Shown in pieces: positions 33,863 through 43,249 of a DNA stretch of 46,832 nt. The DNA comes from Candidatus Staskawiczbacteria bacterium (GTDB lineage Bacteria; Patescibacteriota; Minisyncoccia; Minisyncoccales; Staskawiczbacteraceae). The first letter of the stretch is position 1. Each line of letters starts with the position of its first letter. The translations under genes and the position numbers were made by a program. A model generated the notes under the pieces. That model saw only the letters and a program-made list of their open reading frames with translations. It was not told the origin of the DNA and did no database searches. The DNA is taken from the NCBI GenBank assembly GCA_903928565.1, contig CAIYRH010000009.1, forward strand, positions 1 to 46,832, read 5' to 3'.

Positions 33863-34840
33863 ATGAGAATATTTTCGGGAATAAGGCCAACCGGAGGCCT
33901 ACACATAGGAAATTATTTAGGAGCCATAAAGCAATGGATTGCTTTGCAAGAAACCAACGAATGCATTTTTTGCATTGTTGATTTGCATGCAATTACAACG
34001 CCATACGACCCCAAAGAACTCCAAAAAAATATTTTAGAAGCCACCGCAATTTATTTGGCGGCTGGCATAGACCCCGAAAAATCTGTAATTTTTGTGCAGT
34101 CCGAAGTTAAAGAACACGCCGAATTAGCTTGGCTTTTAGAAACCATTACCCCCATGGGCGAACTTTCTCGCATGACCCAATTTAAAGAAAAATCTAAGCA
34201 ATTTAAAGATTACGTAAACGCGGGATTATTTAATTACCCGGTTTTAATGGCCGGCGACATTCTTTTGTACCGCGCAAAAGCCGTGCCGGTTGGCAAAGAC
34301 CAAGAACAACATGTTGAATTGGCCCGCACAATTGCCAGAAAATTTAACCAAAAATTTGGGCAAATTTTCCCCGAACCAGAAACTATTTTACCAAAAACCG
34401 GCGCCAAAATAATGAGCTTAACCGACCCTAAGAAAAAAATGTCAAAAACCGACGACCCAAAAAGTTGTATTTCACTTTTTGACTCGCCAGAAGCCATTAC
34501 TAAAAAAATAATGAGTGCCGCCACAGATTCCGGTAAAGATGTAATTTATAACGTTACCAAAAAACCTGGCATTTCTAACCTTTTAACTATTTACCATGTG
34601 CTTACCGACATGCCAATTCCCGAAATTGAAAAACAATTTAAGGGCAAAGGTTATGGAGACTTTAAAAAATCGTTAGCAAAAGTTGTTGTTGACTACTTAG
34701 AACCATTTCGCAGAAAACAAAAAGAATTACAAACTAGAGACGTTTATGTAAAAGACATTTTGGCAAAAGGCGCCGCTCGCGCCCGAATTATTGCCGAAAC
34801 CACAATGGCCGAAGTCCGCTCCAAAATGGGACTAACTTAG
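33863..34840 (+). CDS. trpS: Tryptophanyl-tRNA synthetase
   Basis: SGIRPTGGLHIGNY, YPVLMAGDI, VPVGKDQEQH, KKMSKT. Start at MRIFSG. Confidence 0.96.
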   Translation: MRIFSGIRPTGGLHIGNYLGAIKQWIALQETNECIFCIVDLHAITTPYDPKELQKNILEATAIYLAAGIDPEKSVIFVQSEVKEHAELAWLLETITPMGELSRMTQFKEKSKQFKDYVNAGLFNYPVLMAGDILLYRAKAVPVGKDQEQHVELARTIARKFNQKFGQIFPEPETILPKTGAKIMSLTDPKKKMSKTDDPKSCISLFDSPEAITKKIMSAATDSGKDVIYNVTKKPGISNLLTIYHVLTDMPIPEIEKQFKGKGYGDFKKSLAKVVVDYLEPFRRKQKELQTRDVYVKDILAKGAARARIIAETTMAEVRSKMGLT

Positions 34841-34870
34841 TTTGTAGTTTGTAGTGAGTAGTTTGTAGTA
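34838..34870 (+). repeat. TAGT(TTG/GAG) heptamer array starting at the trpS stop
   Basis: TAGTTTG TAGTTTG TAGTGAG TAGTTTG TAGTA. Confidence 0.85.
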
Positions 34871-34873
34871 ACT

Positions 34874-34913
34874 AAAAACACTCCTGTGCTCAGGTGCATA
34901 GGAGTGTTTTTTT
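34874..34913. terminator. Bidirectional terminator between trpS and the phosphomannomutase gene
   Basis: AAAAACACTCCTGTGC-TCAGGT-GCATAGGAGTGTTTTT. Confidence 0.8.
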
Positions 34914-34916
34914 AGG

Positions 34917-36344
34917 TTATTCGAAGGCTTCGGTGTTGACGTTTATTTTAGACGCCCAATCTATTTCTGGGTATTTTTCTAGAAGGGTCTTTAAATATTT
35001 TTTGAGATATTCGTATTTTTCTTTTTCTTTAGCTTCAAACTTTATTGTTAAATAGGGCCCATTTTGCGAATAACGCACCACAAACATTCCATAATCTAAA
35101 TTTAGCCTTAGGCCGTCGCCTGCTCTTTCATCGGCAATAATTTCCGCACCAGAAAAATCTTTTTCTAAAACAGGAATTAGTTTTTCTGTAAGAGCAACTT
35201 TTTTATCGTCTGCGCAAAAAACTTTTATTTCTGGGCTGGAAATATATTTAGGCAACGCATCAACTGCTTGCGCCAAAGACTGCCCAGTTTTACTTAAATA
35301 TTCTAAAAGATATAACGACGAATAAATGCCATCGTCGTGGTTATAAAAATCTTTTGAAAAAAAGAAATGCCCAGACAACTCACCAATAAAAGCTGCTTTA
35401 ACTTCTTGATTTTTCTTTTTCAAAAATGAGTGCCCGGTTCTCCACATAAACGGCATGCCTCCTTCTTTTTTTATAGTGTCTTCAACAACTTTCGAGCAAA
35501 GGGTATTAAACATTATTTTGTCGCCCGGATGTTTTTTTAAAACTCCCGTTGCAAACAAAGCAACCAAAACATCATTCCAAATTATTCCACCTTTTTCATC
35601 TACAATGCCCATTCTGTCGCCATCGGCATCGTAAGAAAAACCAATATCGGCTTTTTCTGCAACAACCTCTCCGCTTAAACGCTTGGCAACCACCATTTCT
35701 GTTGGATCGGGCGTTCCAAGGGGGAAAGTTGGGTCTATTTTGCAATTTTTCTCAACAACTTCAAAGCCGGCCTGCCTTAAAATTTCCGGCACAATTTCTC
35801 CGGCAGTTGAACAACTTGGGTCAACAACTATTCTAAATTTATTTTTAAAATCAAATCGCTTCAACAAGTCATCAAAATAATCTTGCCTAATGCTTTTTTC
35901 TTCAACTATGCCTTCTTTTTCGCCTTTTATATAACTGTCATCTTCAACTATTTTTTTTATTTCTTGAATGCCTTCAGAAACCAACGTTTCTGAAAAATCT
36001 ATTGCCAATTTAAAACCATTATATTGTGCCGGGTTATGAGAAGCCGTAACAAAAACTCCCCCTTTGCAATTCAAAAAATATTGACTCCAATAAAAAGTGC
36101 CAACCATTTCCATGCCAATGCTTATAACGTCAATTCCGGCCCAATTTAGGCCTTTTATTACAGCTTGGCTATATGCGGGGCTTGTTTGCCTGCAGTCGTG
36201 CCCAACTACCGCTTTTTTAATTCCCATTTTAGACAAAACAGTGCCATGGGCCTTGCCAATGCACTCTGCAACTTCTAAATTAAGGTCTTCGCCCACCAAA
36301 CCCCTTATATCATAACCTCTAAATATGTAAGGATTAATTTTCAT
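34917..36344 (-). CDS. Phosphomannomutase/phosphoglucomutase
   Basis: FRGYDIRG, VTASHNP phosphoserine loop, DADGDR, GELSGH. Start at MKINPY. Confidence 0.93.
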   Translation of the reverse strand: MKINPYIFRGYDIRGLVGEDLNLEVAECIGKAHGTVLSKMGIKKAVVGHDCRQTSPAYSQAVIKGLNWAGIDVISIGMEMVGTFYWSQYFLNCKGGVFVTASHNPAQYNGFKLAIDFSETLVSEGIQEIKKIVEDDSYIKGEKEGIVEEKSIRQDYFDDLLKRFDFKNKFRIVVDPSCSTAGEIVPEILRQAGFEVVEKNCKIDPTFPLGTPDPTEMVVAKRLSGEVVAEKADIGFSYDADGDRMGIVDEKGGIIWNDVLVALFATGVLKKHPGDKIMFNTLCSKVVEDTIKKEGGMPFMWRTGHSFLKKKNQEVKAAFIGELSGHFFFSKDFYNHDDGIYSSLYLLEYLSKTGQSLAQAVDALPKYISSPEIKVFCADDKKVALTEKLIPVLEKDFSGAEIIADERAGDGLRLNLDYGMFVVRYSQNGPYLTIKFEAKEKEKYEYLKKYLKTLLEKYPEIDWASKINVNTEAFE

Positions 36345-36392
36345 AATATAATTATACACAAGGCTTAACCTAAAATCCAGAGAAAAGGTCTC

Positions 36393-36421
36393 TTGATTTT
36401 ATAGACATATTCTGTTATAAT
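36393..36421 (+). promoter_or_regulatory. Promoter of rpsF-ssb-rpsR
   Basis: TTGATT-17-TATAAT with an extended TG. Confidence 0.7.
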
Positions 36422-36452
36422 GCGTTATAATAAAAATAAATAGAATAATCAA

Positions 36453-42224: not shown

Positions 42225-42506
42225 TTAAGGGCAATTTTGGAGAGCGATTGACTCGGACCTAGATACGGCATCGATGCAAGTCCTAAGGTCGAACCGATCA
42301 TTCATAGATGGCAAATCTTCTATTTCGTCCAGACGAATCACAGCAAAAGTGCCAGAACCAACTGGGCAAGAAAAACCTGTAGGGCTAGTTTCTGAGTTAA
42401 GCAAGCCCAACTTCCTAATGGCCCCTTCTACGGTCCTCACCGGCACAATGCCAAAAGGCACGTATGACTTGTCGGCAAGCTGGAGACTGGCGCGGATTTT
42501 CGTCAT
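42225..42506 (-). CDS. Hypothetical protein (93 aa)
   Basis: Start MTKIRAS. ATGA overlap with the upstream stop at 42503-42505. Confidence 0.65.
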   Translation of the reverse strand: MTKIRASLQLADKSYVPFGIVPVRTVEGAIRKLGLLNSETSPTGFSCPVGSGTFAVIRLDEIEDLPSMNDRFDLRTCIDAVSRSESIALQNCP

Positions 42507-42880
42507 TGGGGTTTTTTCCTTACTGCGGGTTGAGTTGGCGTTGATTGGCGCGGCGTTTGGCAAACCGGCTGGTCCATTTGAGCAACCGAAAGTTCGGCAG
42601 CCGCAATCTTATTGCGACAAATTTCTTCTGCCGAAAGTGGCGCTCCATATCGCCTCTCTAGCCTTTTCATAATTGCATTCAACGTAGCATCTAATGAAAC
42701 GCATCCATGTGTATGGCCGACAACAAGCCTTCTTGATGCCTCCCCAAACTGTGGCTTAGTAAGATTCGGCCACCTATCATGAGCATACTCATATATTGCG
42801 AGGACGCCGAACGATGCAAACAAATCGTCGGATGATTTTTTTGGCTTTGGCTTCTTCTTCGGTTGCTTTTTGGCACTCAT
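42503..42880 (-). CDS. Hypothetical protein with Lys-rich N-terminus (125 aa)
   Basis: Start MSAKKQ. ATGA overlap with the upstream stop at 42877-42879. Confidence 0.65.
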   Translation of the reverse strand: MSAKKQPKKKPKPKKSSDDLFASFGVLAIYEYAHDRWPNLTKPQFGEASRRLVVGHTHGCVSLDATLNAIMKRLERRYGAPLSAEEICRNKIAAAELSVAQMDQPVCQTPRQSTPTQPAVRKKPQ

Positions 42881-43101
42881 GGTGTTACGGTCCACCTGTT
42901 CGTGGTTGTTTCAGAATGGTTACTCTTGCGTAAGTTAACGACAACTGCGCCAATAATAAGACCAATCACAACTTTGGCGCCAGTCTTGAAAATAACACTA
43001 TTGTCGTAAATCAAACCATACGTAACGGCCACAAGTCCTCCAATTAACAAAAAAGCCAGCGTAACTATGGCTATTCTTTTGCCCGAATTCCTTCTTTTCA
43101 T
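42877..43101 (-). CDS. Small 2-TM membrane protein (74 aa)
   Basis: Start MKRRNSGK downstream of the promoter, after a CA-rich leader. Confidence 0.7.
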   Translation of the reverse strand: MKRRNSGKRIAIVTLAFLLIGGLVAVTYGLIYDNSVIFKTGAKVVIGLIIGAVVVNLRKSNHSETTTNRWTVTP

Positions 43102-43151
43102 AATGGTGTGGTGAATTCTGTGTGGGGTAAAAATTGACAACGAACATAAAT

Positions 43152-43180
43152 ATTTTAGCATTTAAAATTTCTATTGTCAA
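43152..43180 (-). promoter_or_regulatory. sigma70 promoter of islet F
   Basis: TTGACA-17-TAAAAT. Confidence 0.75.
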
Positions 43181-43183
43181 TGC

Positions 43184-43217
43184 AAACAAAATGCCCCGCT
43201 TTTTAAGGCGAGGCATT
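43184..43217 (-). terminator. rpoC terminator
   Basis: AATGCCTCGC-8 nt-GCGGGGCATT-TTGTTT on the minus strand. Confidence 0.7.
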
Positions 43218-43218
43218 G

Positions 43219-43249
43219 CTACAAACTACTCACTACAAACTAAAAACTA
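43219..43249 (-). repeat. TAGT heptamer array starting at the rpoC stop
   Basis: Minus strand TAGTTTT TAGTTTG TAGTGAG TAGTTTG TAG. Confidence 0.85.

Follow-up and report, generated by a model that had tools for sequence, protein, structure and literature searches.

TAGTNNG heptamer arrays that begin on stop codons in a Staskawiczbacteria genome, and their possible origin as arms of hairpin elements

The stretch of DNA analyzed here (the window; 46,832 nucleotides of the Candidatus Staskawiczbacteria contig CAIYRH010000009.1) contains three genes whose TAG stop codon is at the same time the first unit of a tandem heptamer array. The first is trpS (33767-34840, plus strand; Pfam tRNA-synt_1b), the start of which is uncertain, since its relatives align from about residue 30; its stop at 34838-34840 opens a solo TAG-sense array of four units and a closing TAG (34838-34868, plus strand; TAGTTTG, TAGTTTG, TAGTGAG, TAGTTTG, TAG). 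The second is rpsR, which encodes the 64-residue S18 (37524-37718, plus strand; Ribosomal_S18 domain) and ends in five units plus TAG (37716-37753, plus strand), the first two being degenerate (TAGTTAA, TAGTAAG, TAGTTTG, TAGTGAG, TAGTTTG, TAG; stop at 37716-37718). The third is the 3' part of rpoC on the minus strand (43247-46832; RNA_pol_Rpb1_5), an ORF that runs past the window end; its stop at 43249-43247 leads four units and a TAG (43219-43249; TAGTTTT, TAGTTTG, TAGTGAG, TAGTTTG, TAG). The 24-mer TAGTTTGTAGTGAGTAGTTTGTAG is common to all three arrays (34845, 37730 and, on the minus strand, 43219), and at 28304 (minus strand) there is a copy that differs at two positions; shuffled window sequence contained no match to it or to the arrays. 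The preliminary description of this DNA had reported both the unit-1 stops and an identical 24-mer between stop and terminator at these genes, and both were confirmed, the 24-mer copies being exact. Neither a PF05635 gene in the window nor a second arm at the three arrays was found, so the cassette layout of intervening sequences (IVSs), considered below, is absent there.

Each array occupies the gap between the stop codon and an intrinsic terminator. Behind trpS, folding revealed an A-tract, a 16-bp stem and a T-run (34874-34913, plus strand); between rpsR and recA, a bidirectional terminator (37754-37779, plus strand) was found by both terminator scan and folding; and the terminator of rpoC (43190-43217, minus strand), detected by the scan, is followed by a promoter-like site for the next gene (43180-43152, minus strand), noted in the same scan. 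In all, two of the three were detected by scanning and all three by folding. The array RNA itself has no structure and lacks the GC-rich hairpin and T-run of an intrinsic terminator, this function being served by the separate terminator after it. A hairpin homologous to the trpS terminator also follows trpS in the sister genome G041, which has no array there, and the trpS terminator is therefore the older of the two; the core of the rpsR terminator, CCGCCTTCCGGCGG, located between the A-run and the T-run, is also found in G005. By such sequence comparison, the terminators behind the arrays are ancestral and predate them. Elsewhere in the window, at 19465-19495, another heptamer family, mostly open in its orientation, separates a stop from a terminator-like hairpin.

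The arrays at trpS, rpsR and rpoC are absent in the closest relatives, G005 and G003, the proteins of which are 87-98% identical to those of the host genome; throughout G005, in fact, there is no TAGT-family array of four TAGs, and one looser three-TAG site. It had been suggested that the arrays create or replace the gene ends of TrpS, S18 and RpoC. This was not borne out, since the proteins end at the same residue position in the array-less sister species, and thus the arrays do not create gene ends. TrpS of the relatives ends at the same residue (KMGLx) with a TAA stop; rpsR of G005 has TAA and a 13-nt spacer where the host has the array; and the RpoC end position is shared by G005 and G003 (IKEEE or VKEEE, versus IKEKE in the host), with TAA in G005 and TAG in G003. 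The stop-codon change at the array sites is thus confined to TAA to TAG, with the protein ends unaltered; small trims were seen elsewhere, namely in L5 of the host (3 amino acids shorter) and RpoC of G010 (4 amino acids shorter). Sister genomes with and without an array at one stop codon constitute a clean natural experiment, in which the array is seen to take the place of the spacer between stop and terminator while the protein stays intact. The sites are also re-occupied in different species by different stop-led words: TAGT arrays are found at rpoC, rpsR and rplO in G010 and at trpS in G018, a TAAC-family array begins on the rpsR TAA of G041, the nusB-rnc site holds TAA- or TAG-led pairs in G005, G010 and G019, and in G005 a TAACNNG family is found at sites of the same kinds. 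The host and G010 have three array-bearing gene ends in common, against 0.22 expected (P about 0.0015). Unrelated small elements, including GC-rich palindromes, are also found at these sites in the sister genomes.

Two further arrays of the window lie inside uvrC (27200-28516, plus strand), which encodes a short form of 438 amino acids with GIY-YIG, UVR and UvrC RNase H domains. Both are on the minus strand and hence ACTAC-sense in the mRNA, where array 1 (27556-27590) encodes LLTTNYKLPT in a hypervariable linker and array 2 (28300-28334) encodes ELQTTNYKLQT in a variable one; as had been described earlier, this orientation has no in-frame stop, and the ORF is open through both. In the loop of array 1, G003 also has an array, as does a metagenome-contig UvrC with 46% identity, whereas G005 has a GC-rich element instead; in the array-2 region, the host gene is 15 nt longer than that of G005. 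Genome-wide, all 13 in-ORF arrays of the host are antisense, which is a trivial consequence of selection; in-ORF copies located in permissive loops are a typical feature of selfish repeats.

The host genome is ultrasmall and CPR-like (718 kb, 696 called genes) and contains 37 (TAGTNNG)n arrays, i.e., a tandem 7-nt unit in three or more copies at many loci. Besides the 13 in ORFs, these include seven inverted pairs that fill stop-to-start gaps, four arrays surrounding a PF05635 gene, and six solo arrays, all TAG-sense and each followed by a terminator. The same stop triplet recurs at +7 and +14 in 14 of the 696 genes (Poisson P about 2e-9), as compared to 0-3 genes for the other spacings between 4 and 12 nt; 11 of the 14 are TAG arrays of the TAGTNNG family. 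Among the 14 gene-end arrays, the host stop lies inside the array in 12 and is unit 1 in 10. A genome-wide scan for enrichment at stops and for strand bias, as proposed in the preliminary description, thus found both, and the random placement and orientation relative to stop codons that it had named as contrary evidence do not hold for these arrays. With seven solo arrays of two congeners added to the host's six, all 13 are TAG-sense, and none of the solo arms adjoining terminators in the three species is ACTAC-sense. The orientation rule extends to many phyla, where 73 evaluable TAGTNNG arrays comprised 29 that are TAG-sense at a gene end versus three that are ACTAC-sense after one. In 13 cases of after-stop arrays, the sense strand was closed in three frames and the antisense strand open (0-1 frames closed). 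The genes hosting the arrays are for the most part housekeeping genes with high expression, such as those of RpoC, S18, L5, L15, L36, DnaK, GroEL and EF-G.

These regularities bring to mind a cis-acting RNA signal that is under selection at the 3' ends of genes with high expression, and a readthrough-guard or protein-binding role in the 3'-UTR had been suggested earlier. The signal could be a stop block in all frames and in strong context (UAGU), halting ribosomes that have read through or shifted frame ahead of the terminator or the following cistron, or its G/U-rich sequence could bind a protein, for instance the PF05635 four-helix bundle. Such a signal would fit the TAG-sense orientation of all solo arms here and its predominance in other phyla, the mostly housekeeping hosts, a stop that is unit 1 much more frequently than under any insertion null, and the occupation of the same gene ends across species, at times by other stop-led families (TAAC at rpsR of G041; the nusB-rnc pairs); moreover, the host genome lacks Rho, so that intrinsic terminators and ribosome position matter. 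We nevertheless regard this as a tentative alternative. The closest relatives do without arrays at the three gene ends, the very same words are present within 13 ORFs, AT-rich spacers already stop all frames within a few codons and leave little to be gained, and the family at 19465-19495 is mostly open-sense in a comparable position; in the wider samples (metagenome contigs and many phyla), furthermore, the stop is spread more evenly over units 1, 2 and 3.

Structure was found in the pairs. All seven inverted pairs of the host form imperfect stems, 26-30 bp long (dG -23 to -33 kcal/mol) and within the range of about 20-30 bp expected of an IVS, whereas the solo arms, consisting of one arm only, do not fold on their own and remain unpaired. 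Empty sites are present in G005, and the pairs show no visible duplication; nor did the analysis turn up a transposase, a target-site duplication or other insertion machinery for the arrays, and the host genome encodes no reverse transcriptase. It does possess the RNase III gene (rnc), and a pair is located directly upstream of it. When folded, the inverted pairs seem to have the same stability on either strand, the arms flank PF05635 genes of either orientation, and the same sites draw the unrelated elements of the sister genomes, all of which could speak for action at the DNA level, i.e., double- or single-stranded binding sites for a nucleoid protein, a recombinase or the PF05635 protein, or landing pads for cassette recombination, the relation to stops being secondary. 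We consider this unlikely, since solo-arm orientation follows transcription and not the chromosome: within 9 kb, trpS and rpsR on the plus strand and rpoC on the minus strand each have an array that is TAG-sense for its own gene, and the asymmetric pair subfamilies are likewise transcription-oriented (7/7).

The exact 24-mer TAGTTTGTAGTGAGTAGTTTGTAG was found in at least 120 metagenome contigs, and TAGTNNG arrays are present in many phyla. Eighty of the contigs were fetched, spanning 29-67% GC, and in 11 of these a PF05635-like ORF lies within 250 nt of the 24-mer, in either orientation, so that a single exact arm sequence is repeatably linked to PF05635 genes across unrelated metagenomes. The host has three PF05635 matches, all on one contig (C7), where a cassette at 47300-47801 consists of an ORF between inverted arms of exactly the TAGTNNG words. 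Many PF05635 genes of the genus have inverted heptamer arms, including at least one of the two in G005 (locus L120), with its own TAAC/TAAT-type arms. Nonetheless, most arrays are away from PF05635, there being one cassette per 37 arrays in the host and two among 80 loci of the pan-bacterial sample. The unit order TTTG-TGAG-TTTG, repeated at seven host loci and in these contigs of varied GC, also bears on whether the arrays are ordinary simple-sequence repeats, generated by in-place slippage of 7 nt beginning at each stop with no copying between sites. Slippage would place the array at the stop by construction, and would be in keeping with different units at the same site in different species and with copy numbers that differ between loci by 7-nt steps. 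However, besides the interspersed unit order, two pair subfamilies of the host have conserved spacer motifs common to their paired arms, and relatives mostly have TAA, not TAG, at these stops; such an origin is largely refuted by the shared higher-order sequence and is very improbable.

Starting from the directly observed anatomy, copy number, orientation rule, protein ends, patchy presence, PF05635 link and hairpin potential of the pairs, we lean towards the explanation that IVS-like hairpin elements with heptamer arms colonize gene boundaries, and that the three arrays are orphan 'entry arms' from such elements. A full element would consist of (TAGTNNG)n, a cargo or short AT-rich spacer, and (CNNACTA)n, both arms reading TAG inward; the cargo, if any, would be a PF05635 gene ('23S rRNA intervening-sequence protein', a four-helix bundle). 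Most copies are gene-less, either hairpins of 75-95 nt in the gap between a stop and the next start, or single arms. The family would be copied between sites and genomes and would settle where selection tolerates it, i.e., flush on stops, just before starts, or in frame and ACTAC-sense in variable loops. At trpS, rpsR and rpoC, an arm would have taken the place of the short spacer between the native stop and the pre-existing terminator, changing the native TAA to its own first TAG with the protein the same, and the mRNA would gain UAGU stops in three frames and, ahead of the terminator hairpin, a G/U-rich stretch of about 20-25 nt with no structure. We infer mobility as the way of spread, and this widespread hairpin-repeat family is probably mobile. 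By analogy with rRNA IVSs, the paired arms may be RNase III substrates, and the solo arms would be neutral or mildly useful, for translational insulation or spacing, and not a dedicated signal; exact abutment on the stop would reflect element design, selection and deletion bias in a compact genome. Several observations go against the orphan-arm explanation. Insertion, whether random or TAA/TAG-targeted, leaves the stop as unit 1 in 10/14 unexplained, as stop codons make up just 13-17% of the non-coding TAR sites (P about 5e-5); random loss of arms predicts equal numbers of ACTAC-sense solo arms by terminators, of which 0/13 were seen; mostly housekeeping, highly expressed hosts also fit a selected function; and there is no insertion machinery, no reverse transcriptase, and few PF05635 neighbors. 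A broader and rather improbable proposal is that stop-led heptamer arrays are traces left at gene boundaries by an undescribed, pan-bacterial class of elements, comprising PF05635 (Avd-like four-helix-bundle) cassettes and gene-less derivatives put precisely on stops by a mechanism that reads gene ends; their arms would be built-in translational insulators with all-frame stops inward, and the PF05635 protein of a genome would evolve together with its arm word (TAGT.., TAAC.., TGAA..) and be the partner long sought for the heptamer repeats of bacteria.

Heptamer repeats have been noted for decades in cyanobacteria, Beggiatoa, Xanthomonas and Bacteroidetes; to our knowledge, no mechanism or partner was established in that time. 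The STRRs of heterocystous cyanobacteria (units CCCCAGT, TTGGTCA and CAACAGT), earlier named as the precedent, are right in kind, being tandem heptamers with many copies per genome in non-coding positions, but differ in unit sequence from TAGTNNG and belong to another phylum, and we know of no report of all-frame stop design or terminator pairing for them. Correia of Neisseria, ERIC of Yersinia and RPE of Rickettsia are small palindromic repeats with 100-150 bp of unique sequence; Correia and ERIC hairpins are processed by RNase III, Correia duplicates its TA target, and RPE inserts in frame in permissive protein loops. Like them, the host elements are multi-copy, lack mobility genes of their own, and lie between cistrons and at gene ends; unlike them, they are built of 7-nt words, and no target duplication was seen.

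Closer precedents than STRR are the TAACTGA and GGGAATC repeats, and the host arrays are a new variant of these known bacterial heptamer types. TAACTGA direct repeats, found in Beggiatoaceae, cyanobacteria and Bacteroidetes, have stops in all frames one way and are open the other, occur in ORFs only in the open orientation, and are mostly intergenic, some overlapping the upstream ORF stop, with a patchy distribution across phyla and suspected horizontal spread (MacGregor 2015, PMC4679880). All-frame stop design, open-sense in-ORF copies, mostly intergenic location, stop overlap and patchiness are thus shared with the host. The unit differs, TAGTNNG having two variable positions, and so does the placement: stop-sense TAACTGA arrays of Beggiatoa end 1 nt before start codons (PMC4679880), whereas in the host it is the upstream stop that adjoins the stop-sense arm, with the complementary arm in front of the start; inverted pairing, terminator association and a PF05635 link are not described for TAACTGA (PMC4679880). 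The GGGAATC / GGGGAYT repeats of Xanthomonas and Nostoc are likewise intergenic heptamer arrays of preferably about four units, with a strong bias to lie very near or overlapping the upstream ORF stop codon (PMC4692102); they differ from the host arrays in being G-quadruplex-forming, in containing no stop codon, and in occurring on either strand relative to the ORF. The 23S rRNA IVSs with an S23p ORF, in Coxiella and Leptospira, share with the PF05635 cassettes of the host and G005 the layout of a PF05635 ORF within inverted repeats and a stem of about 28 bp, that of Coxiella being cut by RNase III, and also the adjoining heptamer repeats, which in Coxiella are variable in number and located next to the S23p ORF (PMC4990558). 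In contrast, the host elements are in mRNA operons and gene ends and not in rRNA, their arms consist wholly of heptamers, most copies have no ORF, and the three window arrays, being single-armed, form no stem. Two questions become directly testable: whether such repeats are arms of IVS-like, RNase III-processed elements, and whether they insulate translation at gene boundaries, the latter in genomes without Rho and often without Shine-Dalgarno sites. The arrays are also of use in annotating CPR genomes, as markers of true gene ends and of loop insertions that keep the frame; a 7-nt slip in the two uvrC arrays could cause a frameshift.

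The trpS, rpsR and rpoC genes each run into a tandem array of (TAGTNNG)n heptamers, every unit of which is led by TAG, and it was indeed found that the stop codon of each gene is the first TAG of its array, as had been described from the sequence. The trpS ORF (33767-34840, plus strand; Pfam tRNA-synt_1b) stops at the TAG at 34838, which opens an array of five TAGs at 7-nt spacing (34838 to 34868, plus strand); the rpsR ORF (37524-37718, plus strand; Ribosomal_S18) stops at the TAG at 37716, with which an array of six such TAGs begins (37716 to 37753, plus strand); and the rpoC stop (43249-43247, minus strand) is the first of five in the array 43249 to 43219. 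The three arrays share an exact 24-mer, TAGTTTGTAGTGAGTAGTTTGTAG, for which 0 matches were expected by chance, and all three directly abut an intrinsic terminator, in agreement with the position between stop and terminator first assigned to them. The two uvrC arrays (27556-27590 and 28300-28334) lie in the complementary, ACTAC-sense orientation, which was correctly described as having no in-frame stop, and a 438-aa ORF reads through both; the loop with the first of them has the same words in the sister genome G003, and so does that of a UvrC only 46% identical. A known RNA family was ruled out for the arrays, since the Rfam matches in the window were two tRNAs only. It is to be noted that TRF gave a 14-nt repeat unit at 37723-37753, and that in one metagenome contig (Ga0180732_1026009, 314-421) about nine copies of a 14-nt double unit, TAGTGAGTAGTTTG, stand directly upstream of a gene of the '23S rRNA IVS protein' family, PF05635; together with the TRF result, this points to 14 nt as the true repeat unit of this array subfamily.

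The preliminary description had also proposed that the repeats may create or replace gene ends, and this was not upheld. TrpS ends in ...KMGLx in 24 congeners and in KMGLT followed by TAG in the source genome, at a codon that is TAA in most relatives; the last residue of S18 (...PFTPK) is at the same position in the source genome and in the sister genomes G005 and G003; and RpoC ends in IKEKE versus IKEEE, at the same position in G005 and G003. This match with relatives rules out truncation or new gene ends in all three proteins. G005 has an identical rpsR terminator core (CCGCCTTCCGGCGG, flanked by an A-run and a T-run) and G041 a homologue of the trpS terminator, so that the terminators are older than the arrays. 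With the protein ends conserved and the terminators older, the array must have replaced the 11-19-nt spacer between native stop and terminator, with TAA becoming TAG. The native stop position was kept in four of five further evaluable cases elsewhere; L5 of the source genome is 3 aa shorter, and RpoC of the congener G010 is 4 aa shorter. Immediately past the rpoC terminator lies a candidate promoter (43180-43152, minus strand; near-consensus extended -10 type, with TTGACA, 17 nt, TG and TAAAAT), upstream of an unannotated 94-aa ORF (42877-43161) without a Pfam match.

A scan of the whole source genome (718 kb, 37% GC, 18 contigs, of which the window is contig C9), in which an array was counted when it held at least two units plus TAG and genes were crude ORF calls, yielded 37 arrays. 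Thirteen are internal to long ORFs and all 13 are antisense; 14 constitute seven inverted pairs, each between co-directional genes; four surround one PF05635 gene on contig C7; and six are solo arms, all TAG-sense and each followed by a terminator, the trpS, rpsR and rpoC arrays being among them. Among the 14 gene-following arms, 10 have the host stop as unit 1 and two as unit 2, and the remaining two have a TAA 6 nt upstream. When tested blind to repeat family, a gene's own stop triplet recurred at +7 and +14 in 14 of 696 genes, against 0-3 genes for each of the other spacings between 4 and 12 nt (P about 2e-9). This period-7 recurrence, together with the positions of the arms, means that the placement and orientation of the arrays are non-random, and the stop-codon enrichment and strand bias anticipated earlier are thus seen genome-wide. 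The hosts are mostly housekeeping genes, namely RpoC, S18, L5, L15, L36, DnaK, TrpS, AlaS, NusB, RNase Y and PilT, joined in relatives by GroEL, EF-G, RecA and MreB (names outside the window were mostly assigned by eye from translations).

Several simple accounts of this placement were rejected. Insertion at random non-coding positions predicts a stop-codon share of 1%, and insertion at any TAA or TAG one of 13-17%, against the 10 of 14 observed (P about 5e-5 for the latter). Replication-direction bias is ruled out by opposite-strand arrays within 9 kb that each track their own gene, and avoidance of C-rich Rho-loading sites by the absence of Rho from the genome. Seven further solo arms in G010 and G007 are all TAG-sense, so that an ACTAC-sense arm next to a terminator was seen in 0 of 13 solo arms across three species. 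Both this orientation and an abutment on native stops too exact for random or TAA/TAG insertion leave room for a selected RNA-level function of the arrays, which on balance we regard as unlikely, and for a placement mechanism that reads stop codons.

The seven pairs share one layout, in which a stop is followed by (TAGTNNG)n TAG, an AT-rich spacer of 15-19 nt and (CNNACTA)n, and a further 2-13 nt lead to the start codon of the next gene. They comprise two subfamilies by common spacer motifs, have a fixed polarity relative to transcription in seven of seven, and fold into imperfect 26-30-bp stems with dG of -23 to -33 kcal/mol; such hairpins stand at nusB-rnc, dnaK-dnaJ and pilT-pilC, among others. 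The paired arms are probably RNase III substrates, as rnc is present and one pair lies directly upstream of it. Solo arms folded into no substantial structure and the adjacent terminator folded by itself; these folds, with modest and terminator-driven z-scores, rule out a structure of the solo arm's own or its pairing to the terminator. The reading to which we incline, as slightly more likely than not, takes the three window arrays for orphan entry arms of heptamer-armed hairpin elements resembling an IVS (intervening sequence), which are copied within and between genomes and survive nowhere but in permissive loops and where genes meet. TAG reads inward from both arms, and incoming ribosomes would therefore halt at once in any insertion frame or orientation; such a design would minimize harm, and would explain arms that overlap a stop codon while leaving the protein unchanged. 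A solo arm supplies UAGU stops in every frame and moves the terminator from ~11-19 nt to ~30-40 nt past the stop; such arms appear to have little or no dedicated function.

A link to PF05635 was found in cassettes of this kind. The source genome has three PF05635 genes, all on contig C7; one (protein at 47352-47711) is bracketed by arms of exactly the TAGTNNG family, a TAG arm, which also stops rsmA, and a CTA arm. The arms of the other two are built of TAATTTC-type and TTTCGAA-type words, both among the next commonest heptamer families of the genome. G005 has two PF05635 genes, of which at least one lies between that genome's own TAAC/TAAT-type arms, the left of which begins on the TAA of the upstream gene, and inverted heptamer arms of differing words occur at many PF05635 genes of the genus. 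An independent sample bears the link out: among 80 fetched metagenome contigs with the 24-mer, 11 had a PF05635-like ORF within 250 nt of it, in either orientation, and many of these proteins share the N-terminal motif IESY.NLIVWQK with the source-genome protein. The family stands near few arrays, with one cassette per 37 arrays in the source genome and 2 of 80 loci listed in a pan-bacterial sample; these two fractions (11/80 and 2/80) rule out PF05635 beside every array. Retroelement or DGR-type rewriting, with PF05635 as an Avd-like protein, was ruled out by the finding of 0 reverse transcriptases in the 95%-complete genome.

The arrays turn over at sites that are used again. In G005, whose TrpS is ~90% identical, the TAGT family is represented by a single looser site of three TAGs and by no array of four; at 23 orthologous sites it has another heptamer array in ~5 (TAGGGTT, GAAAATT, TTTTCAA or a TAACSGG pair) and a GC-rich palindrome in ~6, the others being empty or unstructured. 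These palindromic inserts (e.g., ...TTCGCTAAAGCTTCGGAAGGGCAAGCCCC..., encoding PSFAKASEGQAP in UvrC), on contig C1 of G005, occupy sites that hold heptamer arrays in the source genome (UvrC linker, dnaK-dnaJ, rplO-secY) and make up a second small inserted-element family of the genus. TAGT arrays occur at rpoC, rpsR and rplO in G010 and at trpS in G018, and the rpsR TAA of G041 carries a TAAC array. Array-bearing gene ends common to the source genome and G010 number three against 0.22 expected (P about 0.0015), and such repeated occupation of the same gene ends also leaves room for an RNA-level function or stop-reading placement. In G010 (C95, 17955-20378, plus strand), a TAGT array follows the stop of a RecA whose C-terminal RecA segment appears to be preceded by an insert of intein or homing-endonuclease type. 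Of 21 congeners, 7-8 have a hairpin element at the nusB-rnc junction, mostly of different words; several, including those of G005, G010 and G019, begin on the nusB stop, and the source-genome nusB stop is the second TAG of its array. In the source genome, the heptamer-armed hairpin (contig C6, 2304-2382) directly precedes the RNase III gene; hairpins of differing sequence are found in G005, G010, G019, G022, G014 and G041, while the junction measures 3-7 nt in G003, G012, G016 and G017. The junction may be one at which RNase III regulates its own gene, in the manner of the E. coli rnc leader, or else a favored landing site.

Beyond the genus, TAGTNNG arrays, the sole word scanned, were sampled from many phyla among the matches listed, again with crude ORF calls, and they follow the orientation rule as well. 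Among these matches, 73 evaluable arrays included 29 TAG-sense at a gene end, 23 in-ORF antisense and 3 ACTAC-sense after a gene end; when only stops outside the array were counted, 15 were TAG-sense versus 3 ACTAC-sense (P = 0.008). At least 120 metagenome contigs contain the exact 24-mer TAGTTTGTAGTGAGTAGTTTGTAG, with GC contents of 29 to 67% among the 80 that were fetched; it matched 0 viral contigs, which rules out phage carriage. In several metagenome contigs, TAGT arms of the same kind directly adjoin tRNA genes. A universal 'unit 1' rule was rejected: strong within the genus, the preference is about even across units 1, 2 and 3 in the wider samples, as far as crude ORF calls allow. This weakening argues against a dedicated guard function, as do the lack of arrays in the closest relatives, the identical words within ORFs, and another family in the window, which separates a stop from a terminator-like hairpin in a mostly open sense. 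This last is a solo (AATTTTC)4 array (19465-19495, minus-strand sense), 3 nt past the TAG stop of a 541-aa ORF (19499-21124) and just ahead of a candidate terminator-like GC hairpin; in gene sense the array shows a TGAAAAT family in its mostly open orientation (one frame closed in sense, two in antisense), and it contradicts any general rule of all-frame stops.

Stop-associated heptamers have precedents. The TAACTGA heptamers give stops in all frames, overlap the stops of upstream genes and are confined to the open orientation when within ORFs (PMC4679880), and GGGAATC heptamers crowd stop codons (PMC4692102); stop-associated heptamer arrays are therefore a kind already known. In the Coxiella IVS, an S23p ORF is accompanied by a 28-bp terminal stem, which RNase III cuts, and by heptamer repeats at the ORF start whose number varies between strains (PMC4990558), the same ingredients as those of the heptamer-armed PF05635 elements described here. 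What is new is the TAGTNNG word in CPR bacteria, the anatomy of paired and solo arms, the precise replacement of the native stop with conserved protein ends, the recurrence of different words at the same sites, and the PF05635 link, which was not found stated in the literature searched. A further inverted pair in the window (17465-17554, minus-strand sense), made of (CGAAATC)3, an AT-rich spacer of ~45 nt and (TTCGAAT)-type units, fills the gap between ORFs 17558-18115 and 16536-17444, and its family has no stop codon in either orientation.
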